The notes: generated from the sequence alone by a model not told the origin. A stretch of DNA of 64,000 nucleotides from a virus (IMGVR_UViG_3300046170_000323), one strand, 5' to 3'; counted from the first letter of the stretch, positions 10,151-24,901 are shown. Made by a program: numbers and translations.

Positions 10151-11529
10151 GGAATACTACCGAAAGGTATATCCTTATCTGAAACCAGATTACTTTGAAG
10201 ACTCAAATCTGCGCAAGGTGTTTGACACCTTCGCAGACTACGTTGAGAAGTACAAAGAGCAACCTTCCTTGGAAGCTCTTAAACTCACACTAGACAAAAG
10301 AAAAGACTTCAACGAAGACAGTTACTCACAAGTGATGTCTGTGGTCAATACTTTTGCACGTGATGAGGAAACAGATAACAAGTTCTTGGTTGATGAAACT
10401 GAAAAGTTCTGCCAAGACCGTGATCTGTATAATTCTATACGGCAATCAATTCAGATTCTTGAGGGTGAAGGGGGTGGACTCGAAAAGGGTTCCATCCCCA
10501 AACTTCTTTCAGACTCTCTTGGGATTAGTTTCGACACCAGTGTTGGACACGACTTCCTAGAAGACTTTGAAGGTAGATATGAATTCTATCACCGTAAAGA
10601 AGAACGCATCCCCTTTGATATTGACATCATGAATAAGATTACCAAAGGTGGTCTGCCTCGTAAGTCTATGACTGTACTACTCGCCACGACTGGTGGTGGT
10701 AAGTCATTGATCAAATGTCACATGGCTGCGAACCATCTCATGTACGGTAAGAATGTTCTGTACATCACTATGGAGATGGCAGAAGAAGAGATTGGTAGAC
10801 GTATTGATGCAAACATCATGGACGTGACTATTGATGAGATATCAATCACTCCACGTGATGTGTTCGAGAAACGTATGAACAGGTACAAGTCTAAGACGCC
10901 AGGCAAGTTGGTTATTAAAGAATACCCAACTGGTTCTGCACACGTTGGACATATGCGACATCTGTTAAACGAACTTCGTATGAAAAAGAATTTTCAACCA
11001 GATATCATATTTGTTGATTACCTCAACATCTGTTCATCTGCACGTGTTCGTGGCGCAGCCGCAGCCAATTCATACACATTGGTGAAATCTATAGCAGAAG
11101 AGGTACGTGGTCTTGCGATGGAATTTAATTGTGCTGTGGTTACTTCGTCTCAATTCAATCGTGATGGTTATGGGAATAGTGACGTTGACCTTACTAATAC
11201 TAGCGAAAGTATGGGGATAACACACACAGCAGACGCAATCTTTGGTCTAGTTACGACAGAAGAACTAGGATGATCTTGGTCAGATTATGATCAAACAACT
11301 CAAAAATCGTTGGGGAGATCTTGGTTATTACAGAAAGTTCCTTGTAGGGGTTGACAGATCCAAGATGAAGATATATGATTTAGAAGAGAGTGCACAGGAC
11401 AATATCGGTCAGTCAAGTGACGATAGAGTAAATGGAAACAAGCCTGATGACACTCCTCTATTTGATAAAACTTCTATTGGTACAACTAAGAAGAAGGACA
11501 TTTTCAGTATGACTGAAGGCCTTCAATAA
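10110..11529 (+). CDS. 41: gp41 replicative DNA helicase, split by probable extra G at 11268
   Basis: LATTGGGKS Walker A, YITMEMAE, VDYLNI, SESMG; C-terminal IKQLKNRW in ORF 11287. Confidence 0.93.
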
Positions 11530-11530
11530 T

Positions 11531-11538
11531 GATAAATA
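11531..11538 (+). promoter_or_regulatory. T4 late-promoter-like octamer GATAAATA
   Basis: One mismatch to TATAAATA, 33 nt before ATG 11571. Confidence 0.45.
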
Positions 11539-11570
11539 GGATTACAGAAACATCTAAAACGAGTGAAAAG

Positions 11571-12629
11571 ATGAAATCCTTTAAACAACACCTCACCGAA
11601 TCTATTAAGGCAGAGGACTTTGAGGCTGCTATTGTAATTGGTTGGCACGAAATCACAGGACAGGAACTAAATCCTAGTGATGCTGGTATATCTGATAAGG
11701 TATACCAGTCTCTCGTTGCACAACCAGAATATATCGAAGCAGGCAAAAAGATTGCCACGTCTATCCAGAAACATTTCAAGTTAGGTAATAACGTGAAAGC
11801 AGAACAGTACGGACGTGCCAAGTCCAAACTGACTGGTTTTTGGAAAGGATACGGTGCTTCAGATATCACACCAAAGACTGATATCCTAATCGGTGACAAA
11901 AGATTGTCTCTAAAGATTGGTATGGCACAGTTGATGTCTGGTGGTAAATCAGAGTCAACTGCAACCTTTTATGCGGCTCTAGAAAAATCACAGATCAATG
12001 AATCTGCACAACTGGGTAAGGTAACAAAGATCTTTGACGACTTCGTCACTGCATCACTTGCGCCAGGCAAACTAAGACCTATCATCAAGTCAGGCGAGAA
12101 TGAACTCGTCAACCGTGGTGAGAAGGCACACAAATTAGTTATGCAAGAACTTGGTACTCTGTTCGAAGAGAACGAGAAGTTCAAGATTGAATTTGCACGT
12201 GAAGCAATGTCTGGTTTCATGAAGTACGGTGAGAACGCAAATGCTGCTGCAGAATTCATGGTGGTATCAGATCACGCAGGTTCCTCTACAAAGATTACAT
12301 CAGTATATGACGATGCGTACTGTAAGAAGATCGCAGATCAGATGAAACTACAAGCACGTTTCAAAACGTCATCACGCAAACTCAAAGGTAAGAAGACAGG
12401 CGAGTATAACTTCTGGTCTGTCATTTCTCTTATCGTAGATGCTAAACTAAACGAAGACGTTGACACTCTTGACGAGAACATGTTCAAACGTATTGTTTCT
12501 AAAATCAAAGGTAAACTGGGTAACGCACTTAAGAAGGCGAAGTCTTTTGTTAAATCAAAGGCATCAAACGTTCTTAAGTTTTTCGGCGTTGAACCCGATA
12601 TCAAAGTAAACGACAAGGTAGAATTCTAA
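11571..12629 (+). CDS. putative head-internal protein with possible PD-(D/E)XK-like fold
   Basis: N-terminus MKSFKQHLTE; TPKTDILIGDKRLSLK resembles a D...xLK nuclease core. Confidence 0.45.
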   Translation: MKSFKQHLTESIKAEDFEAAIVIGWHEITGQELNPSDAGISDKVYQSLVAQPEYIEAGKKIATSIQKHFKLGNNVKAEQYGRAKSKLTGFWKGYGASDITPKTDILIGDKRLSLKIGMAQLMSGGKSESTATFYAALEKSQINESAQLGKVTKIFDDFVTASLAPGKLRPIIKSGENELVNRGEKAHKLVMQELGTLFEENEKFKIEFAREAMSGFMKYGENANAAAEFMVVSDHAGSSTKITSVYDDAYCKKIADQMKLQARFKTSSRKLKGKKTGEYNFWSVISLIVDAKLNEDVDTLDENMFKRIVSKIKGKLGNALKKAKSFVKSKASNVLKFFGVEPDIKVNDKVEF

Positions 12630-13873
12630 TGCAAAAGTTCAGTCAGTTTACTAATTTGTTATCAGAAGAAAAAAACCTTCACATGACACATGCAGAGGAT
12701 GCAGTGATAGATGGTGGAGTGACTGGTACACGCAACGTAATTAATTACCTTCGTGCAATTAGAGATATGTTAGGTGGTAACACCAAAGCGCCTGTAAACC
12801 TTTCAGTAAAGTGGGATGGTGCGCCTGCAATCTTTGCAGGGGTTGATCCATCAGATGGTAAATTCTTTATTGCAAAGAAAGGTGTATTTAACAAAAACCC
12901 AAAAGTCTATAAGACTGCCCAAGAAATTGATGATGATAGTTCTATTAAAGGTGACCTCAACTCCAAATTTAAAGTAGCACTTTCAGAGTTCTCAAAACTT
13001 GGAATTGAAGGAGTGATACAAGGTGATTTCCTCTATACTACGGAAGATCTTTCGACGGATGCTATTGATGGAGAATCGTATGTTACTTTCCATCCTAATA
13101 CGATTGTTTATGCGATACCAAAGAAAAGCGAACTCGCTAAAAAAATATCAAGATCCAAGATCGGTGTGGTCTGGCATACAGTCTACAGAGGAGAATCTCT
13201 TGAGACAATGTCTGCAAGTTTTGGAGAGAAGATTACACCTAATCTCAAAGAAGTAAAATCTGTATGGGCAGTTGATGCCGTATTCGAAGATAAGTCTGGT
13301 AGTGTAACCATGACTGCAAAAGAAACGGCGGCGGTGACTAAGAAACTGAGTGCCGCTGGAATGATCTTCAGAACAATCAAAAAAGATATCCTTAATGAGT
13401 TAGGAAACAACGAAGAGTTGAACCTACGTGTTAACACGTTCATTAATACTAAAGTTCGTGAAGGACAACGTATTGGTAATCCTAAAACATTCGTTAAGGG
13501 ACTTGTAAAATATATTCAAGACTACTATCAAAAAGAAGCCGACAAAAAGAAAACTGAAAAAGGTAAGAAGACGCAGACAGATAAGATGTCTAAAGCGTTG
13601 ACAATGTTCAGTGACAAGAATACCAAAGAGATCGAAAAGGTATTCGAACTCTACAATCTATTAGTCGACACCAAGTTGATGGTTCTTGACAAACTTAATA
13701 AAGTAGATAGTTTAAAAACATTCCTTAAAACAAATAAGGGATATGAAGTTACTAATCCAGAAGGATTTGTTGCAATGGATCACTTGGGTAAGAACTCTCT
13801 TAAACTCGTAGATCGCCTTGCATTTAGTAAGGCAAACTTTGATCCTCAGTATATCAAAGGATGGCAGAAATAA
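12629..13873 (+). CDS. ligase/nucleotidyltransferase-like protein (DUF6267-like)
   Basis: KWDG, QGDFLY, PEGFV and KLVDR resemble ligase motifs I, III, IV and V. Confidence 0.55.
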   Translation: MQKFSQFTNLLSEEKNLHMTHAEDAVIDGGVTGTRNVINYLRAIRDMLGGNTKAPVNLSVKWDGAPAIFAGVDPSDGKFFIAKKGVFNKNPKVYKTAQEIDDDSSIKGDLNSKFKVALSEFSKLGIEGVIQGDFLYTTEDLSTDAIDGESYVTFHPNTIVYAIPKKSELAKKISRSKIGVVWHTVYRGESLETMSASFGEKITPNLKEVKSVWAVDAVFEDKSGSVTMTAKETAAVTKKLSAAGMIFRTIKKDILNELGNNEELNLRVNTFINTKVREGQRIGNPKTFVKGLVKYIQDYYQKEADKKKTEKGKKTQTDKMSKALTMFSDKNTKEIEKVFELYNLLVDTKLMVLDKLNKVDSLKTFLKTNKGYEVTNPEGFVAMDHLGKNSLKLVDRLAFSKANFDPQYIKGWQK

Positions 13874-14267: not shown

Positions 14268-14618
14268 ATGTTGAGAAGAATACCAGCAGTATTGTTAGGT
14301 ATTTTCCTAACAGTACCATTTAATGCACAGGCTGAACAGTTTGTGATGCCCATTGGGTTGAGGTGTGACACTGATGTCAACAACATCATAGACATGGTTC
14401 AAACAAAATATGGTGAAATTCCTTTCGCCAGTTCCGAAACTTTGGTACAAGTAGTACCACAGGGTACATGGTTGCCAGGCGTTACCTTGCAGTTTATCAA
14501 TCCCACATCTGGTTCATTCAGTATGATTATGATGGACGAAGCAACAGGTGCAGGGTGTATGGTAATCGCAGGTCAAAAAATGACTTCCGTTAATGGTTAT
14601 AAACCAACTACTAAATAA
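14268..14618 (+). CDS. hypothetical secreted protein
   Basis: Signal-peptide-like N-terminus ending AQA; GGAG RBS. Confidence 0.6.
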   Translation: MLRRIPAVLLGIFLTVPFNAQAEQFVMPIGLRCDTDVNNIIDMVQTKYGEIPFASSETLVQVVPQGTWLPGVTLQFINPTSGSFSMIMMDEATGAGCMVIAGQKMTSVNGYKPTTK

Positions 14619-14641
14619 AAGAAAAACTTGGAGACTAGACT

Positions 14642-15205
14642 ATGGGAATGATACGTGATCGTGGACATGATGGTGGAAATACTTGGCGGTGGTTAGTCAT
14701 CGAAAAGATGGTACGTCAAAACGGATGGACTAAGGGCGCAGAACTTGGTGTGTGGCAGGGACAAACCTTCACGCATCTTGTACGTACTTGTAAAAACCTA
14801 AATTTGATTGGGGTAGATCTTTATGCACCTCAACCACAAAATAATGGGCCAGAGAAATGGACTGCAGGTGAAAACGGACACCCTTGGGATCACGAAACAT
14901 ATTACAATCGTATGAAACAGTTTTGCGCACAGTATCCAGATCGTGCATTTATTCATAAGGATTATACTACAGCGGTAGCAGACACATTAGAAGACGAGAG
15001 TCTCGACTTTGTTTTTATCGATGCGGATCATGGTTATGAAGGATGTTCACGTGATATTGACGCATGGGCTCCAAAGGTGCGTAAAGGTGGATACATCATG
15101 GGACATGATATTCACTTTGACACTGTTCTCAAAGCCGTGACAGAACGTTACGGTGATAACTATAACGTAGAAGACGACTTCATTTGGTGGGTAGAAAAAC
15201 AATGA
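14642..15205 (+). CDS. class I SAM-dependent methyltransferase (Methyltransf_24-like)
   Basis: GAELGVWQG, GVDLY, DFVFIDADHGY and GGYIMGHD motifs. Confidence 0.85.
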   Translation: MGMIRDRGHDGGNTWRWLVIEKMVRQNGWTKGAELGVWQGQTFTHLVRTCKNLNLIGVDLYAPQPQNNGPEKWTAGENGHPWDHETYYNRMKQFCAQYPDRAFIHKDYTTAVADTLEDESLDFVFIDADHGYEGCSRDIDAWAPKVRKGGYIMGHDIHFDTVLKAVTERYGDNYNVEDDFIWWVEKQ

Positions 15206-15852
15206 ATATCGAAAAGAAAATAACTCAGATCTGGATTGGGCCAAACCCTGCGCCGATGGCATGGATGGACACTTGGAAAGAAAAACATCCAGAATGGGAA
15301 TATGAAATATTTACAGATCAGATGTTGAAGGATCGCAAATGGATGAACCAACATCTCATCGAACACTATTATAATAACAAGAGATGGGCAGGCGTTTCAG
15401 ATCTTATCCGTTACGAACTACTACTAGAACGTGGGGGTTTCTTTCCAGAGGCAGACATGGAGTGTTATCATAACACTGATGAACTGTTTACTTCCCCACC
15501 ACATATTGCATATACTTGTTATGAAAACGAATTGTATCGTGCAAACTTTGTACAACCAGTTCTTGCTTGCAATCCTGGCAATATGTTTGTTCGTATGTTG
15601 GTAGAGACACTACACCAACTTCGTGCAGATCAACTGCATTACGAACCATTCAGATCTACAGGTAATGAGTTCTTGAGTAAACATATTCCAATGAACCTAG
15701 ACAAAGTAAAAGTCTGGCCTTCACATTACTTCATCCCACAGTTCTATGTACGTGAGTCGAAGAGATATGACGGTACTGATAAGGTCTATGCGGAACATCA
15801 TTGGGGTTCTACTGGAATGCCTTGGACAAAACAGTACTCAACTGCTACCTAA
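15202..15852 (+). CDS. glycosyltransferase, GT32/DXD sugar-binding family
   Basis: KITQIWIG, TWKEKHPEWEY, SDLIRYELLLERGG..EAD; start at ATG 15202. Confidence 0.8.
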   Translation: MNIEKKITQIWIGPNPAPMAWMDTWKEKHPEWEYEIFTDQMLKDRKWMNQHLIEHYYNNKRWAGVSDLIRYELLLERGGFFPEADMECYHNTDELFTSPPHIAYTCYENELYRANFVQPVLACNPGNMFVRMLVETLHQLRADQLHYEPFRSTGNEFLSKHIPMNLDKVKVWPSHYFIPQFYVRESKRYDGTDKVYAEHHWGSTGMPWTKQYSTAT

Positions 15853-15962
15853 TGCATGGTGACAGAGGAAATATGCTCACCGTAAAGGTAATGGTTATTC
15901 TATGTGTGGTTTTACACTTTGTAGTCATACCAATATGGATGTGGAGTTTAGGATTACATTGA
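15852..15962 (+). CDS. 36-aa hydrophobic small protein
   Basis: Coupled to both neighbours (TAATG, TGAATG); one TM-like segment; below ORF-track cutoff. Confidence 0.5.
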   Translation: MHGDRGNMLTVKVMVILCVVLHFVVIPIWMWSLGLH

Positions 15963-16724
15963 ATGTTTATATCACACAAATACAAATTTATTTTTCTTAG
16001 AGTTCCGAAGACTGCCTCAACTAGTCTTTCGGAATTCTTTGTTCGTAACATAGACGATCCAGATGCATTTTACACAGACGTAGATGATGCAAATCTTGAT
16101 GGGACTGTGCCTCATGATAAACTCAAAGAGATTAGAGGAGTACACGAACACTACAAACCCTTCTCACACCTACATTTAAATCTAAAAGAACTCGTTGATC
16201 ATGGTATAGTAACACCAGAACAAATCAACGAGTATTATTGTTTTGCGGTTCTCAGAGATCCTATTGAAAGACAAAAGAGTTTTTACTACTTCTTTAAGAA
16301 GTGGGAAGATGAGAGATCTGGTAAGAAACCCTATGATATAGACGATTACAAATTCATGGCACCTAATGGGTGGTTTGATGGTGACAAGGCAACAGGTGAA
16401 GATAACTCTAAACTACTTCAGTCCGATTTCCTCATGTATGATGGTAAACAACAAGGTGAGTATTGGTTATATGAAAATATAATGGATCACCTTATAGAGT
16501 TTATGAATAAACTTGATTTGGAAATAAAACACCCATTGAAAAAACACAAATCAAATTTTAGAGTAGATAAAATTGATGAGTCCAAGTCATTTAATTTTGA
16601 TCACCAAGCAATCACCTCAATGAGACATTATTATAAAAATGACTTCAACTTATATTCATTATTAAAGAGACAATATCATGCAGACACAACGAGCTTACAT
16701 ACTTACAATAGACAAACCAATTAG
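15963..16724 (+). CDS. sulfotransferase family 2 protein
   Basis: FIFLRVPKTASTS 5'-PSB loop and VLRDPIERQKS 3'-PB motif. Confidence 0.85.
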   Translation: MFISHKYKFIFLRVPKTASTSLSEFFVRNIDDPDAFYTDVDDANLDGTVPHDKLKEIRGVHEHYKPFSHLHLNLKELVDHGIVTPEQINEYYCFAVLRDPIERQKSFYYFFKKWEDERSGKKPYDIDDYKFMAPNGWFDGDKATGEDNSKLLQSDFLMYDGKQQGEYWLYENIMDHLIEFMNKLDLEIKHPLKKHKSNFRVDKIDESKSFNFDHQAITSMRHYYKNDFNLYSLLKRQYHADTTSLHTYNRQTN

Positions 16725-17404
16725 TCGTGAATACGCACAACATGCATCTGCTTCTTGTGATGAGATAGGTCTCAACTGGGAGTACTTCGAAGGTTGGTGT
16801 GATATCCCTGGCGTTCTTGCATGGGCAAGATCGGGGATTAATTTGCGTATAAACGAGGGGAGACCAATTAAACTTCCCCCTGCAGATCTGGATTACCCAC
16901 CAAATCCAAACTTACCTATGGGTGAGAAAGCAGAGTGTTGTACGGTTGGTCATGCTGCGATATGGAAAAAGATTGCAGAGGGTGAAGAGGATGTAGGTAT
17001 TGTGTTAGAACATGATGCAATTATGTTACATTCTGTGGACATTGAAATACCAGAGAATAATATGGTTGTTTTAGGATACAAACTAGACAAACCTAATAGG
17101 TATGATCATTTGACTGCAGGGCCCTGCAGTGAGACTTGTACCAATCAGAGGACATGAAGGTGCACATGCATATGCGATGACTAAGAAAACAGCGCAGATA
17201 TTGATTGATGAGATCGAAACAGGTGGTCGATTAGGGTGTGTAGATAATGCATATTTCATCTTAAATCAAAGACGCACAAAGGTTCCTCTATGTATCGCAG
17301 ACCCAACACCCGCTTTAGGTTGGTTAAGGGCATCTACTATTTGGCAGGAATCTGCACATGTTAACTACGAATTTCTTGATTCATTCAAACAGAATTATAA
17401 ATAA
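16678..17404 (+). CDS. glycosyltransferase family 25-like, split by probable indel at 17119-17124
   Basis: CCTVGHAAIW, VLEHDA and downstream GAHAYAMT motifs. Confidence 0.7.
17396..17403 (+). promoter_or_regulatory. T4 late promoter TATAAATA
   Basis: Exact consensus 33 nt upstream of ATG 17436. Confidence 0.8.
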
Positions 17405-17435: not shown

Positions 17436-20400
17436 ATGTACAACCTCAAAGAAACTGACAAAAAAGAAAAGAAGTCCAAGAAGAAGGATGTGATGAAATT
17501 CAAAGAGTTTGATCCTTCTCAGTACATCGAAACAGAACCGACACTCAAAGAAGCAAAGAGTGATACGGTTGTGTTTTCTTTTGGTCGTATGAATCCAGTG
17601 ACTATCGGTCACGAGAAACTTGTCAACAAGGTTAAGTCTGTTGCTAAATCCATGTCAGCCGATTCACGTGTCTATCTATCGCACACGCAGAATAATCAAA
17701 AAGATCCCCTCAGTTATAAAGACAAATACCGATTTGCGAGGAAAGCATTCGGGCCAATCATTATACAATCAAAAGCGAGACAAGTATTCCAAATCGCAGC
17801 CGAACTCGAAAAGGCGGGATACAAGAACATCGTCATGGTTGTTGGATCTGATCGTGTAGAAGAGTTCAAAAGAATTCTAGACAAGTACAACGGTAAGGAC
17901 TACGACTTCGCATCTATCAAAGTTGTTTCTGCTGGCGCACGTGATCCAGACGCAGATGGTGTTGAAGGAATGTCAGGTACAAAACTAAGAGGTATTGCCC
18001 AAAAGGGACAGTTTGACGACTATACAGATGAGAAGGGTAAGAAACAATTCGGTTTCAAAAGTGCTGCTGCATCTAAGTTGTCAGACAAAGACAAGATGGC
18101 AATGATGAAACTTGTTCAGAAGAACCTCGCAGAGGCGGAACTTCAAGAAGCGTTGACCAGACAACAACGTATGCAACGTGCACGTACATTCCGTAGAATC
18201 AAACATAAGATTAAAAAGGGACGTGAACGGGCGTCAAGAAAACGTGCAGGTATCGACAAGTTGCAGAAACGTGCCGCAAAGGGTGCAAGAAATCTCTTGA
18301 AAAAGAAAATGACTAAGGGACAAGACTACAAACAAATGTCTTATGGTCAAAGACAACAGGTCGATAATCGTCTGAAGAAAGTATCTCCTGCCCGTCTAAA
18401 AGCATTATCTAAACGTCTCTTACCTTCAGTGAAGAAGAAAGAGATGGAACGTATTAAGAACCGTAATAACAAATCTGAGGGTGTTGCACAGGACAGACAA
18501 GTCAAAGACATGCCGGGCACACAGCCAAAAAAGTACTATAGCGGGCTTGATAAAAAGGATAAGGAATCACGTGCAAGACAGTTTGCACGACAGGCGAAAA
18601 TGTCTGATGATGATCCACGTGCTTACAAACCCGCTCCTGGCGATAAGGAAGCGAAGACCAAACCGTCAAAACATACTAAGAAGTTTCAACAGATGTATGG
18701 TGAAGCAGATGCAGTTGCGGCTGCAAGAGAACGCATCAAACGTGAGAAACAGTCTGATAAAGATAAACACGATGCAATGATGGATCGTGCAAGAACTCAG
18801 GATACCAGATCTAAGAATCAAAAGACTGAGGCAATCTCCCCTGCACAACAGGCTGCGATTGCTATTGCAAAGAAAGCAAAAGGTCAGAAACCTAAGAATG
18901 AAGATGACGATCCATGTTGGGATACTCACAAGCAAGTTGGTATGAAGAAAAAGGGCGGCAAGATGGTTCCAGATTGTGTCCCTAAAAACGAATCAATTGC
19001 AGAAGAAGTTTCTCAGAAACAGATCAATGACCTAGAGAAATTTGCAGATCGTATTCTTGCGAAGTTCAAGATTGACGTGGAGTTTACTAAACACTTCGTT
19101 GATAGAATGAACGACAAGAGAAACACACCAGAAATTAAAGTTGCAGAACTTCAAAAGTTATTTAAAAAGATACAGAAGAATAAGGGCAAAGATGTTAAAG
19201 ACAATGAGGGTATTGAAGCAGTTCTTAAAGATCTGTCATCTGACTTAAACCTTCCAGTTGTAATTAAAACAAAAGGTGACGAGATCGAACTCGTCAATAA
19301 GACCATTATGAGAAAAAAAGATTTTAAAACACCTTCTAAGGTAATCAAGTACGAACAGTTTTCAAACATGGACGAAGCATCACGGGCGGACATGAGAGTA
19401 CGTAAAAGACCACACATGATGTTGAAGGCAGGGAATGCTGGAGTCAAGTTCGATGGTCGTTTCAAAATGTACAAGAAGAAACAGGTACTGAAAGACGAAG
19501 AGAAACCGTTGGAAGAATCATTTGAATCTATGGAGAACATGATCTTCGATCTAATGGAATCAACTGAAGCCGTGATTGCGGAAGATTCAGGCGAAGCACT
19601 TAAGAAGAAAGCAGAAAAATCTGGAATGCCTCTTGGTATTCTAAAGAAGGTTTTTGATCGTGGTGTTGCCGCATGGAGAACAGGACATAGGCCTGGCACT
19701 ACTGCAACTCAGTGGGGTCTTGCACGTGTCAACTCATTTGTAACTAAGTCTAAAGGTACTTGGGGTAAAGCAGACTCTGATCTTGCCGCAAAGGTTAGAA
19801 AAGAATCTGTTGATGAGGAAAAAGAATTAGAAAAAATCTTAACTACGGATGGTCGTATGAAATCGTTTAAAGAGAAACTCAGAAAACTGGGTTATAAAAA
19901 AATCGACGAAGGAAAGTCTTCTTCTGGATACGAACTGTACCACAATGATTTCTCCTCTGCAATGAAACATGCATACAAACATGCGAAAGACAAACTGAAA
20001 GTGGATATCGATCCTAATGAGATCGATGACAAAGTGGCAACTGGGCCTCGTAAACCTTCTAAGGGTAAAACGAATTCATATCGTTTGACAGATAAGTCTG
20101 GTAAAAAGGCAGTACAGATCCAAGTGTACAACATGGACGGTAAAAAATACGAACTGAACATGTACAAGGAAGACTTGGACGAAGCACCTCGACGTAAACG
20201 CCCACCTAAAATGACTGGTGACTCTATTGCAATTCAACGTGCAAAAGACGCAGAACTTAACAAAGCTCTTGGTCGTACAAAGACTGGACGTAAGAAACCA
20301 GTACGCAAAATGACATCTACCCAACGTTCACTTGCGTCATTACGTGGGGAAGAAGTAGAAAACATTGATGATCAGTTTGACGCTATCATCAAAGAGGCAG

Positions 20401-21491
20401 AATCAAACAAGAAATCTTATGGTGACCTTGTAGTAGAACTGACTGCCGCCGAGAAAAAACTTGTCAATCAAATGTATGACAAGAAAGGTAACCTCACACC
20501 ACTTGGTAAAAAGGTTATGAATCACGGTAAGAAAAAAGGTGACAAGGGTTACGTAGAATCAGTGGAAACACTAGAGGAAGGTGTAAACGATCCTGGCATC
20601 TTTAAGGCAGTGTTCCTCGCAGGTGGGCCAGGCAGTGGTAAATCATTTATGGTTGGTAAGACTGCATTGACTTCAATGGGATTGAAACTGATCAACTCAG
20701 ATCCTGCCTTCGAAGCGCAGTTGAAAAAAGTTGATTTGAAACCAACACCAGAAGACATCTTCACTGCTAAAGGACAGGATGCACGTGCAAAGGCGAAAGC
20801 ACTTACTGACAAAAAACAGGCACTTGCACTCGCAGGTAGACTTGGTCTGGTAATTGACGGTACTGGTAAGGACTATGAGAAAATTGCAAACCAAGCGATG
20901 TCACTCAAGAAGTTGGGTTATGAAGTCGGAATGATCTTTGTAAACACAAACTTGGAGACTGCAATCTCACGTGATGAAAAACGTTCTAGAACACTTGGTG
21001 CGAAAGAAGTAACCAATATGTGGAATGCAGTACAGAACAACATTGGTAAGTTCTCATCACTGTTTGGTGGGAACATGCAGATCGTTGATAACTCAGAAGG
21101 TGCAGACTTTGAGAAGGGTGCAACCAAAGCATATAAACAAATGAAGAAATGGGTTGCAAAAGATCCCAAGTCTCCAATGGCGAAAAAATGGATTGCCTCT
21201 GTGAAAGCACAACGTGGTATCACAGAAGACGATTTAGGTAAAATGATTAACAGTATGGTAGAGGGCAAAGATCAGGAAGATCTTTCAAAAACAGCTTCAC
21301 TATTTGAAAAGGATATTGTAATGGTTCGTGAAGGTTTGGACGTGAAGGAGAGTAAAGTACTTGAGTTGGGGAAACCAGAGACTACGAAGAAATATAAAAC
21401 TGAAACGCCTGGCGAGAAGCCGACGACAGAACCTCAGAGGTTTTCGCAGAGAATTAGAGAAAACATTCTCCGAAACCAAAGAAGAAAATAG
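17436..21491 (+). CDS. 1351-aa modular putative head-internal polyprotein (HIGH-type nucleotidyltransferase, putative BECR RNase, P-loop kinase and small modules)
   Basis: FGRMNPVTIGHEKL; FTKHFVDRMNDKR; LAGGPGSGKS with VIDGTG; hydrophobic-x-E motifs between modules; late promoter. Confidence 0.7.
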   Translation: MYNLKETDKKEKKSKKKDVMKFKEFDPSQYIETEPTLKEAKSDTVVFSFGRMNPVTIGHEKLVNKVKSVAKSMSADSRVYLSHTQNNQKDPLSYKDKYRFARKAFGPIIIQSKARQVFQIAAELEKAGYKNIVMVVGSDRVEEFKRILDKYNGKDYDFASIKVVSAGARDPDADGVEGMSGTKLRGIAQKGQFDDYTDEKGKKQFGFKSAAASKLSDKDKMAMMKLVQKNLAEAELQEALTRQQRMQRARTFRRIKHKIKKGRERASRKRAGIDKLQKRAAKGARNLLKKKMTKGQDYKQMSYGQRQQVDNRLKKVSPARLKALSKRLLPSVKKKEMERIKNRNNKSEGVAQDRQVKDMPGTQPKKYYSGLDKKDKESRARQFARQAKMSDDDPRAYKPAPGDKEAKTKPSKHTKKFQQMYGEADAVAAARERIKREKQSDKDKHDAMMDRARTQDTRSKNQKTEAISPAQQAAIAIAKKAKGQKPKNEDDDPCWDTHKQVGMKKKGGKMVPDCVPKNESIAEEVSQKQINDLEKFADRILAKFKIDVEFTKHFVDRMNDKRNTPEIKVAELQKLFKKIQKNKGKDVKDNEGIEAVLKDLSSDLNLPVVIKTKGDEIELVNKTIMRKKDFKTPSKVIKYEQFSNMDEASRADMRVRKRPHMMLKAGNAGVKFDGRFKMYKKKQVLKDEEKPLEESFESMENMIFDLMESTEAVIAEDSGEALKKKAEKSGMPLGILKKVFDRGVAAWRTGHRPGTTATQWGLARVNSFVTKSKGTWGKADSDLAAKVRKESVDEEKELEKILTTDGRMKSFKEKLRKLGYKKIDEGKSSSGYELYHNDFSSAMKHAYKHAKDKLKVDIDPNEIDDKVATGPRKPSKGKTNSYRLTDKSGKKAVQIQVYNMDGKKYELNMYKEDLDEAPRRKRPPKMTGDSIAIQRAKDAELNKALGRTKTGRKKPVRKMTSTQRSLASLRGEEVENIDDQFDAIIKEAESNKKSYGDLVVELTAAEKKLVNQMYDKKGNLTPLGKKVMNHGKKKGDKGYVESVETLEEGVNDPGIFKAVFLAGGPGSGKSFMVGKTALTSMGLKLINSDPAFEAQLKKVDLKPTPEDIFTAKGQDARAKAKALTDKKQALALAGRLGLVIDGTGKDYEKIANQAMSLKKLGYEVGMIFVNTNLETAISRDEKRSRTLGAKEVTNMWNAVQNNIGKFSSLFGGNMQIVDNSEGADFEKGATKAYKQMKKWVAKDPKSPMAKKWIASVKAQRGITEDDLGKMINSMVEGKDQEDLSKTASLFEKDIVMVREGLDVKESKVLELGKPETTKKYKTETPGEKPTTEPQRFSQRIRENILRNQRRK

Positions 21492-21502
21492 GGAGTAACT
21501 AA

Positions 21503-21658
21503 ATGATTAACTGGATTACAAAACGTTTAACTGAACGTACCACATGGGATGGAGCAGTATTGGTTGCAACAGGTGTTGCAATGATTCTAGTTCCTGTAGA
21601 TCTAATCGCATATGCCGCAATCTTCTACGGTGCATGGACAATGTGGAAGTCAGAGTAA
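21503..21658 (+). CDS. 51-aa membrane protein
   Basis: GGGAG RBS, two hydrophobic segments, abuts next ATG; absent from ORF track. Confidence 0.6.
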   Translation: MINWITKRLTERTTWDGAVLVATGVAMILVPVDLIAYAAIFYGAWTMWKSE

Positions 21659-22093
21659 ATGTATGAATACAGAGTTAAAATCCTTCGTGTAGTAGACGGT
21701 GACACAGTAGATGTGGACATCGATCTAGGTTTTGGTGTATGGTTGAAGAAGGAACGTGTACGTATTATGGGTATTGATACTCCAGAGTCACGTACGAGAG
21801 ATAAGGTCGAGAAGAAGTTCGGTATGGCTGCAAAGAAATGGGTAAAAGATCATATGCCTGTTGGTAGTCATCAGATTCTGAAGACTGAGATCGATAAGTC
21901 TGGTGAAGACAAAAAAGGTAAGTTTGGTCGCATCTTGGGAGACTTCCTCTTAGATGATGGTGAGCAAAGACTCACTGAAAAGATGACCGCCGCAGGGCAT
22001 TGTGTCCCTTACTTTGGTGGATCTAAAGAAGAAGTTCAGGCGTTACACATGAAGAACAGAGAACGTCTAATGCTGGAAGGTGTTGTAAAGTGA
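21659..22093 (+). CDS. thermonuclease (SNase)-like nuclease
   Basis: VVDGDTVD, RVRIMGIDTPE and GKFGRILG motifs. Confidence 0.85.
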   Translation: MYEYRVKILRVVDGDTVDVDIDLGFGVWLKKERVRIMGIDTPESRTRDKVEKKFGMAAKKWVKDHMPVGSHQILKTEIDKSGEDKKGKFGRILGDFLLDDGEQRLTEKMTAAGHCVPYFGGSKEEVQALHMKNRERLMLEGVVK

Positions 22094-22482: not shown

Positions 22483-22726
22483 GCCATATCTGGATGATGG
22501 GGGGTCAAGACGGTTTGACCATTTACGGGATGACTATGTTTGGCACAGAGATCATTACGACAGAACAGTACGTGTCATTGATGGGAACGGATGGCAGTTC
22601 CAGTTCGACGGATGTTTGCCCTTCCTCATCAGAAAGGGAACAACCTTCAGAATAGAACGTGGTGTGTACCACAGACTTATAAAGGGCGTTGACGAACTTC
22701 ACATCAATATTATAGAACATAAATAG
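22457..22726 (+). CDS. small cupin-like hypothetical protein
   Basis: WHRD...WQFQFD...YHRLIKG pattern; start uncertain. Confidence 0.5.
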   Translation: MVAEITFGRPYLDDGGSRRFDHLRDDYVWHRDHYDRTVRVIDGNGWQFQFDGCLPFLIRKGTTFRIERGVYHRLIKGVDELHINIIEHK

Positions 22727-22768
22727 ATATAGTTAATTAACGATCCAAATAACCTTAAGGATAAAACA

Positions 22769-24901
22769 ATGGACTTTAAAGATAAAATAGACAGTCTTTT
22801 CGGTACTCTGGTTCACCAGAAACTAGAAGAGAAAAAGAACACAGCAGAAGACGCATCAAACGACAAGTCTGATGACGGCGAAGGAATGGACAAAGTAGAT
22901 CCAAAGGCTGCGAAAAAGAAATTCAAAGATCGTAAAGATAAAGATCTGGACAACGATGGTGACATAGATTCATCCGATAAGTTCTTGCACAAGAGACGCA
23001 AGGCAATCGGTAAAGCTATGTCCAAAGATCAGAAAGACGAATCTGTAAAAAAGTCTGATGCGGTAGACCTCAGTGAAGGTGACATGAAGTCTGCCGCTAA
23101 AGAACTGGAATCATATGCCAAGAAGTCTGGTGGAATCGATAAGAAAGATTTCATGAAGGCAGTGGCGATGATGAAAAAGGGTGATGCAAAGGGTCTTGCG
23201 AAGTTTACTAACGATCAAGATACAGAACCACGTGATAAGATCATCGATATAGTTGCAAAACAAATCGGTGTACCCCAAGCAGAAAAGTTGTTTAGTGTCA
23301 GTATTCGTGAAGCAAAAGAGATGACTTCAGCGCAGAAGAAAGCGTTTGATAAACTGTACAAGAAACTAGACGGTGGCCCAGAACATCGTAAGATCAGACA
23401 GAAGATTCAGAATCCTGTCAAAGCAGATGATGCATTTCATGCAATGGTTAAGAAGATGGTTATGGGTGAGGATTACTCTCCACAGTCTATCGTAACTGAA
23501 GCGGAAGTCGAAGAAGGTAAACGTGGGTTTATCATGGCTGCAAAAGCTGCGAAGGCAAAAGGTGAAAAGACCTTTATGTTTGCAGGTAAAGAATATAACT
23601 GTGAAGACATCGATCTTGACGAGGCATCTAAAACTGTTGATGCAATGAAACAAATCGTTGACAAAAAACAGGCGATGAAAATCGACGGTGTTATGGTTGA
23701 CATGTTCACTGCTTCTGCAGTTACGCAGATTTACGACAAAGTAAATGATGCGAACAAGGCGAAGATGGACAAGATGAAAGCAACTCAACTTGCAAACATT
23801 GCAATGAAGATGTTGAAGAAAGAAGAGTTGGAAGAGGCCGCAAAGATGTGCGAGTCCTGTGGTAAAGTCCACGAAGGTTCTTGCATGGAAGAGATGAAGA
23901 ACACTCATGCGCTTATCAACACTGCAGACGGTAACAAAGTTGTTGCAATGGCATCATCTGAAGATGGTGTTAAACAATCTAAAGCATCTGCACAACGTCC
24001 ACCTATGTCAATCAAAGACAAGAACACTCTGAAGATTGTTAAACTTAAGAAACCTGTAAGTCAAAAGGCATCCGATAAAATAATGGGTCGTCCTTTGAAT
24101 GAGGAAACACTTGATGAGAAAATGTCATTCTCACCTAAAGAGGTTAAGATGGCAATCGGTGTTGCATCAGATAAAAGATATGCTGGTGGTAACATGACAG
24201 GTGCAGTCAAGGCAATCGATAAAATCAAAAAGGGTTTGTCAGACCATCCACAAGTCGCTGCAGTTCTAAAGAGACAGAACGAAGAGAAGGTGGAGTGCCC
24301 TCAGTGTGAAGGTAAAGGTTGTGATCATTGTGATAACAAAGGTTACCACACAGAATCTAAAAAGATGGCACTTGCAAAGAAACTTGCAAAGGTATCTGCG
24401 GCTTCTAAAAAGGGTAAATCAAAAGTAACTCTTAAGAAGGCGCCTTGGGACAAGAAAGAAACAGTCAATACTGAACCAGAATTAGAAGAAGCAAAAAACT
24501 ATGAGTACAAGGGCGGTAAAGTCCATATCTCTAAGAAAGACTTCCGCAAGGTTCACAAAGACTTTAAGAATGCAACAAAGGGTAAAGAACGTATGATGAT
24601 TCTTGATCCTAAAACGCAAGCATCTATATCTGTACCAGTTGTGTTCAAAGAAAGTTCTTTTAAAACCAAATTTAAGAATACCCTAAGTAAGAGACTTGCA
24701 GAAACAACTAAAACAGAAGAAAAATCTGATGAAGTTGCAAACAGATATAATGAACTTAAAACAATGCCGCCAGTGGAATTGATGAAACTTTATCAAAAGC
24801 ATGAAAGCGATGCCGACATAGATAAGGTTAAGAAAATGAGCAAAGACGAGATGATCTCGAAAATTGTTGAAAAAGAATTTCAAAACCAAGGAGAAGAATA
24901 A
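22769..24901 (+). CDS. 710-aa modular Lys/Glu-rich putative head-internal polyprotein
   Basis: Many hydrophobic-x-E motifs separating short modules; two CxxC pairs; CATAAATA upstream at about 22718. Confidence 0.6.
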   Translation: MDFKDKIDSLFGTLVHQKLEEKKNTAEDASNDKSDDGEGMDKVDPKAAKKKFKDRKDKDLDNDGDIDSSDKFLHKRRKAIGKAMSKDQKDESVKKSDAVDLSEGDMKSAAKELESYAKKSGGIDKKDFMKAVAMMKKGDAKGLAKFTNDQDTEPRDKIIDIVAKQIGVPQAEKLFSVSIREAKEMTSAQKKAFDKLYKKLDGGPEHRKIRQKIQNPVKADDAFHAMVKKMVMGEDYSPQSIVTEAEVEEGKRGFIMAAKAAKAKGEKTFMFAGKEYNCEDIDLDEASKTVDAMKQIVDKKQAMKIDGVMVDMFTASAVTQIYDKVNDANKAKMDKMKATQLANIAMKMLKKEELEEAAKMCESCGKVHEGSCMEEMKNTHALINTADGNKVVAMASSEDGVKQSKASAQRPPMSIKDKNTLKIVKLKKPVSQKASDKIMGRPLNEETLDEKMSFSPKEVKMAIGVASDKRYAGGNMTGAVKAIDKIKKGLSDHPQVAAVLKRQNEEKVECPQCEGKGCDHCDNKGYHTESKKMALAKKLAKVSAASKKGKSKVTLKKAPWDKKETVNTEPELEEAKNYEYKGGKVHISKKDFRKVHKDFKNATKGKERMMILDPKTQASISVPVVFKESSFKTKFKNTLSKRLAETTKTEEKSDEVANRYNELKTMPPVELMKLYQKHESDADIDKVKKMSKDEMISKIVEKEFQNQGEE

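Follow-up and report, generated by a model that had tools for sequence, protein, structure and literature searches.

The capsid-targeting sequence (CTS) of phage T4 and its processing by the prohead protease gp21, which cuts head proteins after (I/L)-x-E, are textbook knowledge, the known examples being a handful of small coliphage proteins. According to the T4 record, the internal proteins (IPs) IPII and IPIII both begin with MKTYQEFIAE↓A, where the arrow, here and in the following, marks a known or proposed cleavage position. Within the CTS, targeting depends on residues 4 and 7, and processing on residues 8 and 10 (PMC9026906). Here we analyse a stretch of 64,000 nucleotides (nt) of viral DNA (IMGVR_UViG_3300046170_000323), referred to as the window, that carries on its plus strand (17436-21491) an open reading frame (ORF) of 1351 amino acids (aa) in which unrelated modules are joined at candidate sites of this type. 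We propose that the ORF encodes a late polyprotein which would be packed into the capsid, cut by a gp21-type protease, and delivered with the DNA in pieces, and we consider this full chain of events probable. The polyprotein reading is supported by an enrichment of the candidate sites in this ORF and its 710-aa neighbour only, by their coincidence with domain edges and their conservation, by separate genes for the same modules that are led by a CTS, and by the presence of homologues in virions.

Genomic Context and Late-Promoter Motif

The window derives from a marine T4-like myovirus, with uvsX, gp41 helicase, gp61 primase, and nrdAB around the ORF. By protein similarity, two Kyanoviridae, Pelagibacter phage HTVC008M and Methylophilales phage Melnitz, are the closest isolates, and a megablast search of the polyprotein gene against isolate phages yielded no match. 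The ORF is open over 1351 codons and encodes a protein of 152.7 kDa with an isoelectric point (pI) of 9.8; all predicted cleavage products are basic (pI 8-10.5), like the T4 IPs. An assembly or annotation artefact was considered and rejected, since the nearest virus record carries a 98% identical copy of 1359 aa whose frame is free of stops and more than 3000 homologues of 1000-1650 aa share a common architecture.

As stated in a preliminary description of this DNA, the ORF lies behind an exact T4-type late promoter octamer, TATAAATA, which is situated 33 nt upstream of the start codon. It is the placement of this octamer, not its count, that is matched at other genes of the window: GATAAATA at 11531 precedes a CTS-led gene at 11571 by 33 nt (NATAAATA, the same 33-nt spacing), and CATAAATA is located 44 nt before an ORF of 710 aa at 22769. 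On the strength of the motif, the polyprotein gene appears to be expressed late.

Module Architecture

Module boundaries were derived from Pfam, PHROGs, and two AlphaFold2 models in combination. The models were computed from homologue alignments in two halves, covering residues 1-680 with a mean predicted local distance difference test (pLDDT) score of 72 and residues 640-1351 with a mean pLDDT of 65. At least seven separable, unrelated modules are joined in the 1351-aa chain (Table 1). Two of them are enzyme domains that had been recognized correctly in the preliminary description. Residues 40-238, which follow TLKE↓AKS, have the motifs and the Rossmann-like fold of a HIGH-type nucleotidyltransferase (NTase), with TIGH at residues 56-59 and MSGTKLR near residue 180. 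In structure comparison, NaMNAT, PPAT, and NMNAT are tied over residues 42-235 (VIA Z 12.9, 12.8, and 12.8; root-mean-square deviation 3.1 over 151 residues; Foldseek E 4e-5). The match to phrog_3041 “cytidyltransferase” is strong (1.4e-90), and Pfam CTP_transf_like reached 13.3 bits, under its cut-off of 21.

The second enzyme follows TLEE↓GVN. Residues 1049-1264 form a P-loop kinase of the Zeta-toxin/AAA_33 type with the motifs GGPGSGKS (Walker A), LVIDGTG, and RDEKRSR, for which Zeta_toxin scored 28.6 bits (cut-off 22.3) and AAA_33 25.5 bits, just below its cut-off of 27. Foldseek matches comprise adenylate and thymidylate kinases, the Clostridium Pnkp kinase, and zeta/PezT, all pointing to the P-loop NMP-kinase fold.

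DUF5824 (PF19141) was found with 63.8 bits against a cut-off of 25, split into two parts: profile positions 1-68 correspond to residues 364-439 (18525-18752) and profile positions 63-123 to residues 725-782 (19608-19781). The Pfam model is a composite of two separable modules, which in the polyprotein are separated by 285 residues that include other modules. In the polyprotein, the module of residues 525-647 is an insert that splits the DUF5824 model and is flanked by a site on either side. No mention of DUF5824 was found in the literature searched.

The label of a putative RNase, given to residues 524-640 in the preliminary description, received no support from Pfam, where no match was obtained, or from the ESM Atlas, which returned unnamed viral clusters only. 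The only structural match for residues 523-605 is the viral protein PAV1-137 (VIA Z 7.2), retrieved with the 680-residue model in a search dominated by the NTase. For the small modules, nothing credible was found in Pfam at E up to 5, and ESM Atlas hits were restricted to unnamed viral clusters (0.79-0.87). Neither a peptidase nor a MuF match was obtained in Pfam and PHROGs with the whole protein or with pieces of it.

Candidate Cleavage Sites

All hydrophobic-x-E (φ-x-E) motifs at which the modules had been proposed to be joined are present, with the P1 Glu, i.e., the residue preceding the presumed cut, at positions 39, 238, 523/524, 647, 716, 825, 916, 987, and 1048; further sites were found at 694, 708, and 1264. 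The motifs are enriched, and most of them are conserved; IIKE↓A (E987) is not conserved.

The motif [LI]xE[AGS] occurs nine times in the ORF, compared to an expectation of 2.0 +/- 1.4, and none of 2000 composition-matched shuffles reached this number. Pooled over the other 57 ORFs of the window, 26 occurrences face 25.3 expected ones. Among the 59 window ORFs, an excess is confined to the polyprotein and to the 710-aa ORF at 22769 (5 versus 1.2). For 121 long proteins (119 homologues, the query, and an identical database record), a mean of 5.8 versus 2.0 was obtained, corresponding to a ratio of 2.9. Due to the fact that the class of small P1' residues (A/G/S) was picked after the data had been seen and that the bare motif [LI]xE is only weakly enriched in the ORF (15 versus 9.9), these statistics alone would not carry the case.

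The comparison of φ-x-E motifs with predicted domain boundaries, as suggested in the preliminary description, revealed that they coincide with domain edges of the AlphaFold2 models. E39, E523/524, E825, E916, E987, and E1048 adjoin segments with pLDDT <50, E238 closes the last helix of the NTase, and E1264 is located within a pLDDT dip at residues 1261-1264.

An alignment of 120 long sequences, query included, spans 4705 columns because the linkers do not align. In the column of E39, φ-x-E is kept in 63/63 sequences, i.e., in all homologues that possess the N-terminal extension; the corresponding counts are 101/103 for E238, 41/41 for E825, and 96/120 for E1048. With the fusions anchored on the invariant GVNDP at the start of the kinase, P3 is Leu in 92% (Ile or Val in the remainder) and P1 is Glu in 82% and Ala in 18%, the neighbouring positions showing about 1 bit. 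Downstream of the kinase, G-(I/L/V)-x-E is found in 76 of 100 fusions, and the other 24 proteins stop at that point. In the 12 closest homologues, the sites at 39, 238, 523, 647, 694, 708, 825, and 1048 are kept, those at 716 and 916 are kept in part, and that at 987 is not.

Stand-Alone Module Genes and Their Leaders

Module shuffling between related phages, an earlier suggestion, is borne out by the occurrence of the same modules as separate genes and in other orders in Melnitz, HTVC008M, C48C1, S-RIM8, and thousands of metagenomic phages. The leaders of the stand-alone genes end at the position homologous to L-x-E of the fusion. For the kinase (about 222 aa, n=120), a short leader is present in 112 stand-alone proteins, with φ-x-E directly before GVNDP in 111 of these 112 and a length of exactly 10 residues in 64. 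Its form is M-x-x-F-x-x-(F/Y)-(L/I)-x-E↓GVNDP, as in MLSFKSYLSE↓G and MKSFQQYLDE↓G. Among 65 proteins (43 distinct) with the 10-residue pattern, Phe occupies position 4 in 95%, Phe or Tyr position 7 in 94%, Leu or Ile position 8 in 91%, and Glu position 10 in all cases (100%).

Leaders were also found in front of other modules. In case of the NTase, these are MKKFSEIIE↓A in Melnitz_18 and MKKFSAFLTE↓A in S-RIM8 and S-CAM22. Genes of the basic module are Melnitz_17 and C48C1 gene 88, the latter with MLSFKQFVSE↓V followed by a ..TQRR.. motif as it occurs after LQE↓A in the polyprotein. The C-terminal half of DUF5824 is a 90-aa gene of its own in C48C1 (gene 90, MITFKKYLEE↓K ... DLEE↓G). Leaders of DUF6267 proteins are given by C48C1 gene 87 and by a gene of the window starting with MQKFSQFTNLLSE; a leaderless version of DUF6267 starts five residues past the end of the leader of the window gene. 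In other phages, phrog_455 joins the DUF6267 family to the NTase. The module of residues 525-647 is a gene of its own in Melnitz (_31), in Paraglaciecola GD virus, and in phiM12-like phages, and the module of residues 826-916 is present inside Melnitz_20 with the same flanking sites.

The N-terminal propeptide of the polyprotein holds MKFKEF at residues 20-25 and ends with TLKE↓A within a conserved IE-x-x-P-x-L-x-E motif. At the kinase junction, many fusions retain the whole leader pattern (..EAFESYLEE↓G), and the polyprotein keeps positions 8 and 10 only (..VETLEE↓G). On a metagenomic contig of 143 kb, the uvsX-gp41-cargo synteny is preserved, the kinase being encoded separately. This contig and the separate CTS-led genes directly show that such genes have fused and split, the joints retaining the release site. 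Beyond one review, no link of the CTS to cyanophages was found in the literature searched.

As a side observation, the gene following the cyanophage cytidyltransferase (S-RIM8, L005 3420-5138; S-CAM22, L010 2423-3882) is annotated as “cytidyltransferase” as well. Since this second gene product is long, of low complexity, rich in Glu and Lys, and devoid of transferase motifs, it was likely mislabelled by proximity.

Maturation Protease and Virion Proteomes

Peptidase_S77 (gp21) genes are present in Melnitz, HTVC008M, and Atu_ph07 (gp204), and on the basis of these relatives a gp21-type protease is assumed for the source phage. A cytidylyltransferase homologue (ORF154) was detected in S-CREM2 virions, and “frequent detection” of kinases and cytidyltransferases in cyanophage virion proteomes was described in the same study (PMC10665884). 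According to supplement 3 of PMC3037559, the cyanophage core cluster T4-GC190 “Cytitidyltransferase” is flagged with proteomic data.

The 778-aa protein gp53 of Atu_ph07 has a calculated mass of 87.07 kDa (87.08 in the published table), and its kinase is 43% identical to that of the polyprotein. The N-terminus of gp53 reads MKWNDLNE↓A, and its kinase is flanked by VTE↓G on the upstream side and NLTE↓L on the downstream side. In virions, gp53 was identified by 31 unique peptides with 45% coverage and peaks in gel band 9, the band of 21-22-kDa proteins, whereas other Atu_ph07 proteins of about 87 kDa peak in band 1 (PMC6102473 Table S5). A peak at about 21 kDa despite a mass of 87 kDa is the pattern expected of a cut polyprotein.

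Likewise, gp44 (86 kDa) and gp108 (98 kDa), two other large virion proteins of Atu_ph07, migrate well below the mass predicted for them, with peaks in bands 10 and 13, respectively (PMC6102473 Table S5). This migration suggests an extensive processing of Atu_ph07 head proteins that is not discussed in PMC6102473.

Proposed Maturation Pathway and Alternative Explanations

In the proposed pathway, the precursor would enter the prohead core by means of residues 1-39, its N-terminal propeptide, or of some other segment. There, a gp21-type prohead protease would cut after the Glu of L/I/M-x-E, at E39 and at the junctions E238, E523/524, E647, E694/708/716, E825, E916, E1048, and E1264. The expected products are an NMNAT/PPAT-like adenylyltransferase of 22 kDa, a P-loop kinase of 24 kDa, and a number of small basic modules, which would stay in the capsid alongside the DNA and be ejected into the next host in the manner of the T4 IPs and Alt. 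In this view, the fusion arose from genes that are found apart in related phages, each with its own 10-residue capsid-targeting leader, of which the joints keep positions 8 and 10. We infer cleavage and ejection of the polyprotein as well as the roles of its enzymes, ejection by analogy to the T4 IPs and Alt. Packaging and N-terminal processing are likelier than the full chain of events, and cleavage at every site listed is less likely. What the cargo would do in the host is a guess: it might provide ready-made salvage of cofactors of the nicotinamide adenine dinucleotide (NAD) or coenzyme A (CoA) type, or 5'-end phosphorylation, against host defence. Together with the DUF6267 ligase-like protein and a neighbouring SNase, an RNA/DNA end-repair kit is conceivable.

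Several observations weigh against the polyprotein reading. The propeptide of 39 residues differs from the canonical 10-residue CTS, TATAAATA is not enriched in the window (3 occurrences versus 2.96 expected), and no Peptidase_S77/gp21 match was found in the nearest virus record, which is 63% complete. Besides the lacking conservation of E987 and the partial conservation of E916, LAE↓A (E233) is located within a helix, and due to the Ala at P1, 18% of the fusions cannot be cut before the kinase. About 80% of the stand-alone NTase homologues and some long fusions begin at the domain without a leader; thus packaging of the NTase is not universal. The phiM12 homologue gp159 is annotated as hypothetical only, its neighbour gp157 being called a virion structural protein. 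As to the proteomes, the authors of the S-CREM2 study caution that non-structural proteins of high abundance may be carried along in virion purification (PMC10665884), and many Atu_ph07 proteins smear across many gel bands (PMC6102473 Table S5). An apparent avoidance of [LI]xE within mature kinase domains (37 versus 94 and 29 versus 121, i.e., 0.24-0.39 of expectation) was rejected as evidence, since the control motif [LI]xQ is equally depleted; moreover, the sequences are all related.

The weak or missing conservation of the junction sites 987, 916, and 233, the Ala before the kinase in 18% of the homologues, and the predicted location of E708, E716, and E987 within helices would fit a large multidomain protein that is packaged in one piece and, as T4 Alt, loses its propeptide only, the internal φ-x-E motifs being uncut leftovers of former leaders. 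Such leftovers would decay, however, whereas across very divergent sequences the linker in front of the kinase is conserved at P3 and P1 and nowhere else. Since, in addition, proteins ending after the kinase end exactly at the proposed site and the 87-kDa gp53 of Atu_ph07 is most abundant in the gel band of about 21 kDa, we regard this explanation as unlikely. Alternatively, the protein could be an ordinary cytoplasmic late multi-enzyme, e.g., a two-step cofactor synthase like NadR or COASY, that works in the producing cell without ever being packaged, its Glu motifs reflecting linker composition. An NTase combined with a P-loop kinase is indeed a known bifunctional layout, the majority of stand-alone NTase homologues are leaderless, and phiM12 gp159 lacks an annotation as virion protein. 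This explanation is nevertheless quite unlikely, given that the motif excess is specific to the ORF and survives composition-matched shuffling, that the leaders of stand-alone kinases agree with the T4 CTS at all four functional positions, and that homologues were detected in at least three virion proteomes.

We consider it very improbable that the protein is a scaffold-like filler of the core which is packed and chopped by gp21 like gp22, with its pieces expelled before DNA entry and nothing delivered. Many cut sites, long basic helical stretches (residues 239-350 and 415-461), and linkers of low complexity are shared with core proteins, but the catalytic motifs of both enzymes (Walker A, TxGH, and the SxTxxR-like motif) are intact and highly conserved, folded domains of 22-24 kDa are unlikely to exit via capsid pores, and homologues are present in mature virions.

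Feature Coordinates and Neighbouring Genes

Table 1: Modules of the polyprotein, its promoter, and CTS-led genes upstream in the window (residues refer to the polyprotein).
Feature	Position	Strand	Remarks
CTS gene	11531..12629	+	GATAAATA, then start at 11571 with canonical 10-residue CTS MKSFKQHLTE↓S
DUF6267 (KxDG ligase-like) protein	12629..13873	+	leader MQKFSQFTNLLSE↓E
T4-type late promoter octamer TATAAATA	17396..17403	+	33 nt upstream of ATG at 17436
Whole ORF	17436..21491	+	1351 aa; proposed internal-protein precursor
N-terminal propeptide, residues 1-39	17436..17552	+	Lys-rich, then FKEFDPSQYIETEPTLKE↓A; low pLDDT/disordered; ends in conserved φ-x-E column
HIGH-type NTase, residues 40-238	17553..18149	+	TxGH...MSGTKLR; NMNAT/NaMNAT/PPAT fold; ends LQE↓ALT
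Basic helical module, residues 239-350	18150..18485	+	ALTRQQRMQR...; very basic
Residues 351-524	18486..19007	+	N-terminal half of DUF5824 model (PGTQP...KPAPGD), long helix, two-Cys beta hairpin; ends IAEE↓V
Alpha/beta module, residues 525-647	19008..19376	+	flanks IAE↓E and MDE↓A
Linker, residues 648-716	19377..19583	+	mostly disordered; tandem sites LEE↓S (694), LME↓S (708), IAE↓D (716)
DUF5824 C-terminal half, residues 717-825	19584..19910	+	helical; ends IDE↓G
Small alpha/beta module, residues 826-916	19911..20183	+	bounded by IDE↓G and LDE↓A
Basic linker and helices, residues 917-1048	20184..20579	+	CTS-like remnant DQFDAIIKE↓A (987, not conserved); ends TLEE↓G
P-loop kinase, residues 1049-1264	20580..21227	+	Zeta-toxin/AAA_33-type; bounded by LEE↓G and ITE↓D
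C-terminal tail, residues 1265-1351	21228..21488	+	low confidence, basic end; last part resembles HTVC008M gp128

The longest ORF version of the CTS gene opens at 11529. Due to the location of GATAAATA at 11531 and the canonical CTS, the ATG at 11571 is the likely true start. Relatives of this gene start with MQGFKTFLSE↓A (Melnitz_15) and MYKFNEYLTE↓A. Its product matched no Pfam or PHROG family, yet the gene is conserved beside DUF6267 in Melnitz, HTVC008M, and the 143-kb contig. A strict regular expression for the 10-residue CTS retrieved this gene only from the window (null 0), the leaders of the ORFs at 12629 and 22090 being looser variants.

Between the CTS-led genes and the polyprotein gene, a sugar-modifying cassette is situated (14268-17404), consisting of Methyltransf_24, a DXD glycosyltransferase, a sulfotransferase, and a weak GT25 match. 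The GT25-like reading is spread over the overlapping ORFs 16678-17157 and 17129-17404, which may be explained by a frameshift. Downstream of the polyprotein gene, a small membrane-protein-like ORF conserved in Melnitz (_32) occupies 21503-21658 and is followed by an SNase-family nuclease at 21659-22093. The next ORF (to 22482) begins with VKRFKQYTVE↓N, a CTS-like leader on a GTG start. The region 22718-24901 comprises CATAAATA and the 710-aa ORF, which belongs to no Pfam family and, with its excess of [LI]xE[AGS], probably represents a second processed head-core or cargo precursor.

Implications

Together with thousands of relatives, this locus suggests that the T4-like phages dominating the ocean widely use the same address-and-release code as T4 to load enzymes into the head, and that whole sets of enzymes can be encoded as one protease-resolved polyprotein. 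Such a code would account for the unexplained “cytidylyltransferases and kinases” in cyanophage virion proteomes, would provide a sequence rule for the prediction of injected proteins from metagenomes, and points to enzymatic first-strike functions in cultured relatives (Melnitz, HTVC008M, cyanophages, and Atu_ph07). The leaders offer natural variants for T4 protein-packaging technology.

As a tentative and rather doubtful extension, marine T4-like phages might run a plug-and-play cargo system, in which a 10-residue tag and an L-x-E site suffice to load any enzyme and the delivered kit restores cofactors of the NAD/CoA type or repairs cut RNA before phage gene expression. In such a system, genes could fuse and split freely into and out of polyproteins because the maturation protease would separate the products again. 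If so, the cargo (adenylyltransferase, kinase, DUF6267 ligase-like protein, and nuclease) would blunt abortive-infection defences in abundant ocean bacteria.

Comparison with Known Systems

Like the polyprotein, NadR (NMNAT and ribosylnicotinamide kinase; NAD salvage) and COASY (PPAT and dephospho-CoA kinase; CoA synthesis) combine a HIGH-type adenylyltransferase with a P-loop kinase in one protein. At the sequence level, however, no membership in either family was found, the kinase scores best with Zeta_toxin/AAA_33, and the two enzyme domains of the polyprotein are 800 residues apart with unrelated modules between them. T4 gp22 is cut at many L/I-x-E sites within the prohead, as is proposed for the polyprotein, but it is a coiled-coil structural protein that undergoes degradation and is for the most part expelled, whereas the models predict the pieces of the polyprotein to be folded enzymes whose active sites are intact.

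In phiKZ, 201phi2-1, and SPN3US, a protease related to gp21 cleaves many head proteins behind Glu, inner-body and ejection proteins among them and some at several sites, and these phages package and eject large enzymes. In contrast to the proposed processing of the polyprotein, these cuts mostly remove propeptides and take place at a motif of the S/A/G-x-E type. We know of no description of a chain of independent enzymes separated by cut sites in phiKZ-type phages.

Polyvalent proteins, known from phages and conjugative elements, share with the polyprotein the combination of many unrelated effector domains, zeta-like kinases among them, in one polypeptide that is predicted to be borne with the DNA and released as separate parts (PMC5512222). 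They differ from it by peptidase domains of their own and by ties to MuF/portal proteins or to conjugation, neither of which was observed for the polyprotein. Release of its modules would instead rely on the capsid maturation protease in trans. T4 Alt is placed outside the class of polyvalent proteins (Iyer et al. 2017, PMC5512222).

The T4 proteins IPI, IPII, IPIII, and Alt correspond to the polyprotein in being basic products of late genes outside the head cluster and, in case of Alt, in being an enzyme carried in the head, as is proposed for the modules of the polyprotein. Their short leader with aromatic residues at positions 4 and 7, a hydrophobic residue at position 8, and Glu at position 10 is matched by the stand-alone homologues of the modules. 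In contrast to the T4 proteins, the polyprotein joins many modules in 1351 aa with about ten internal sites, possesses a propeptide of 39 residues with a conserved motif of its own, and comprises an NMNAT/PPAT-like transferase, a P-loop kinase, and modules of unknown function instead of an ADP-ribosyltransferase or a nuclease inhibitor.

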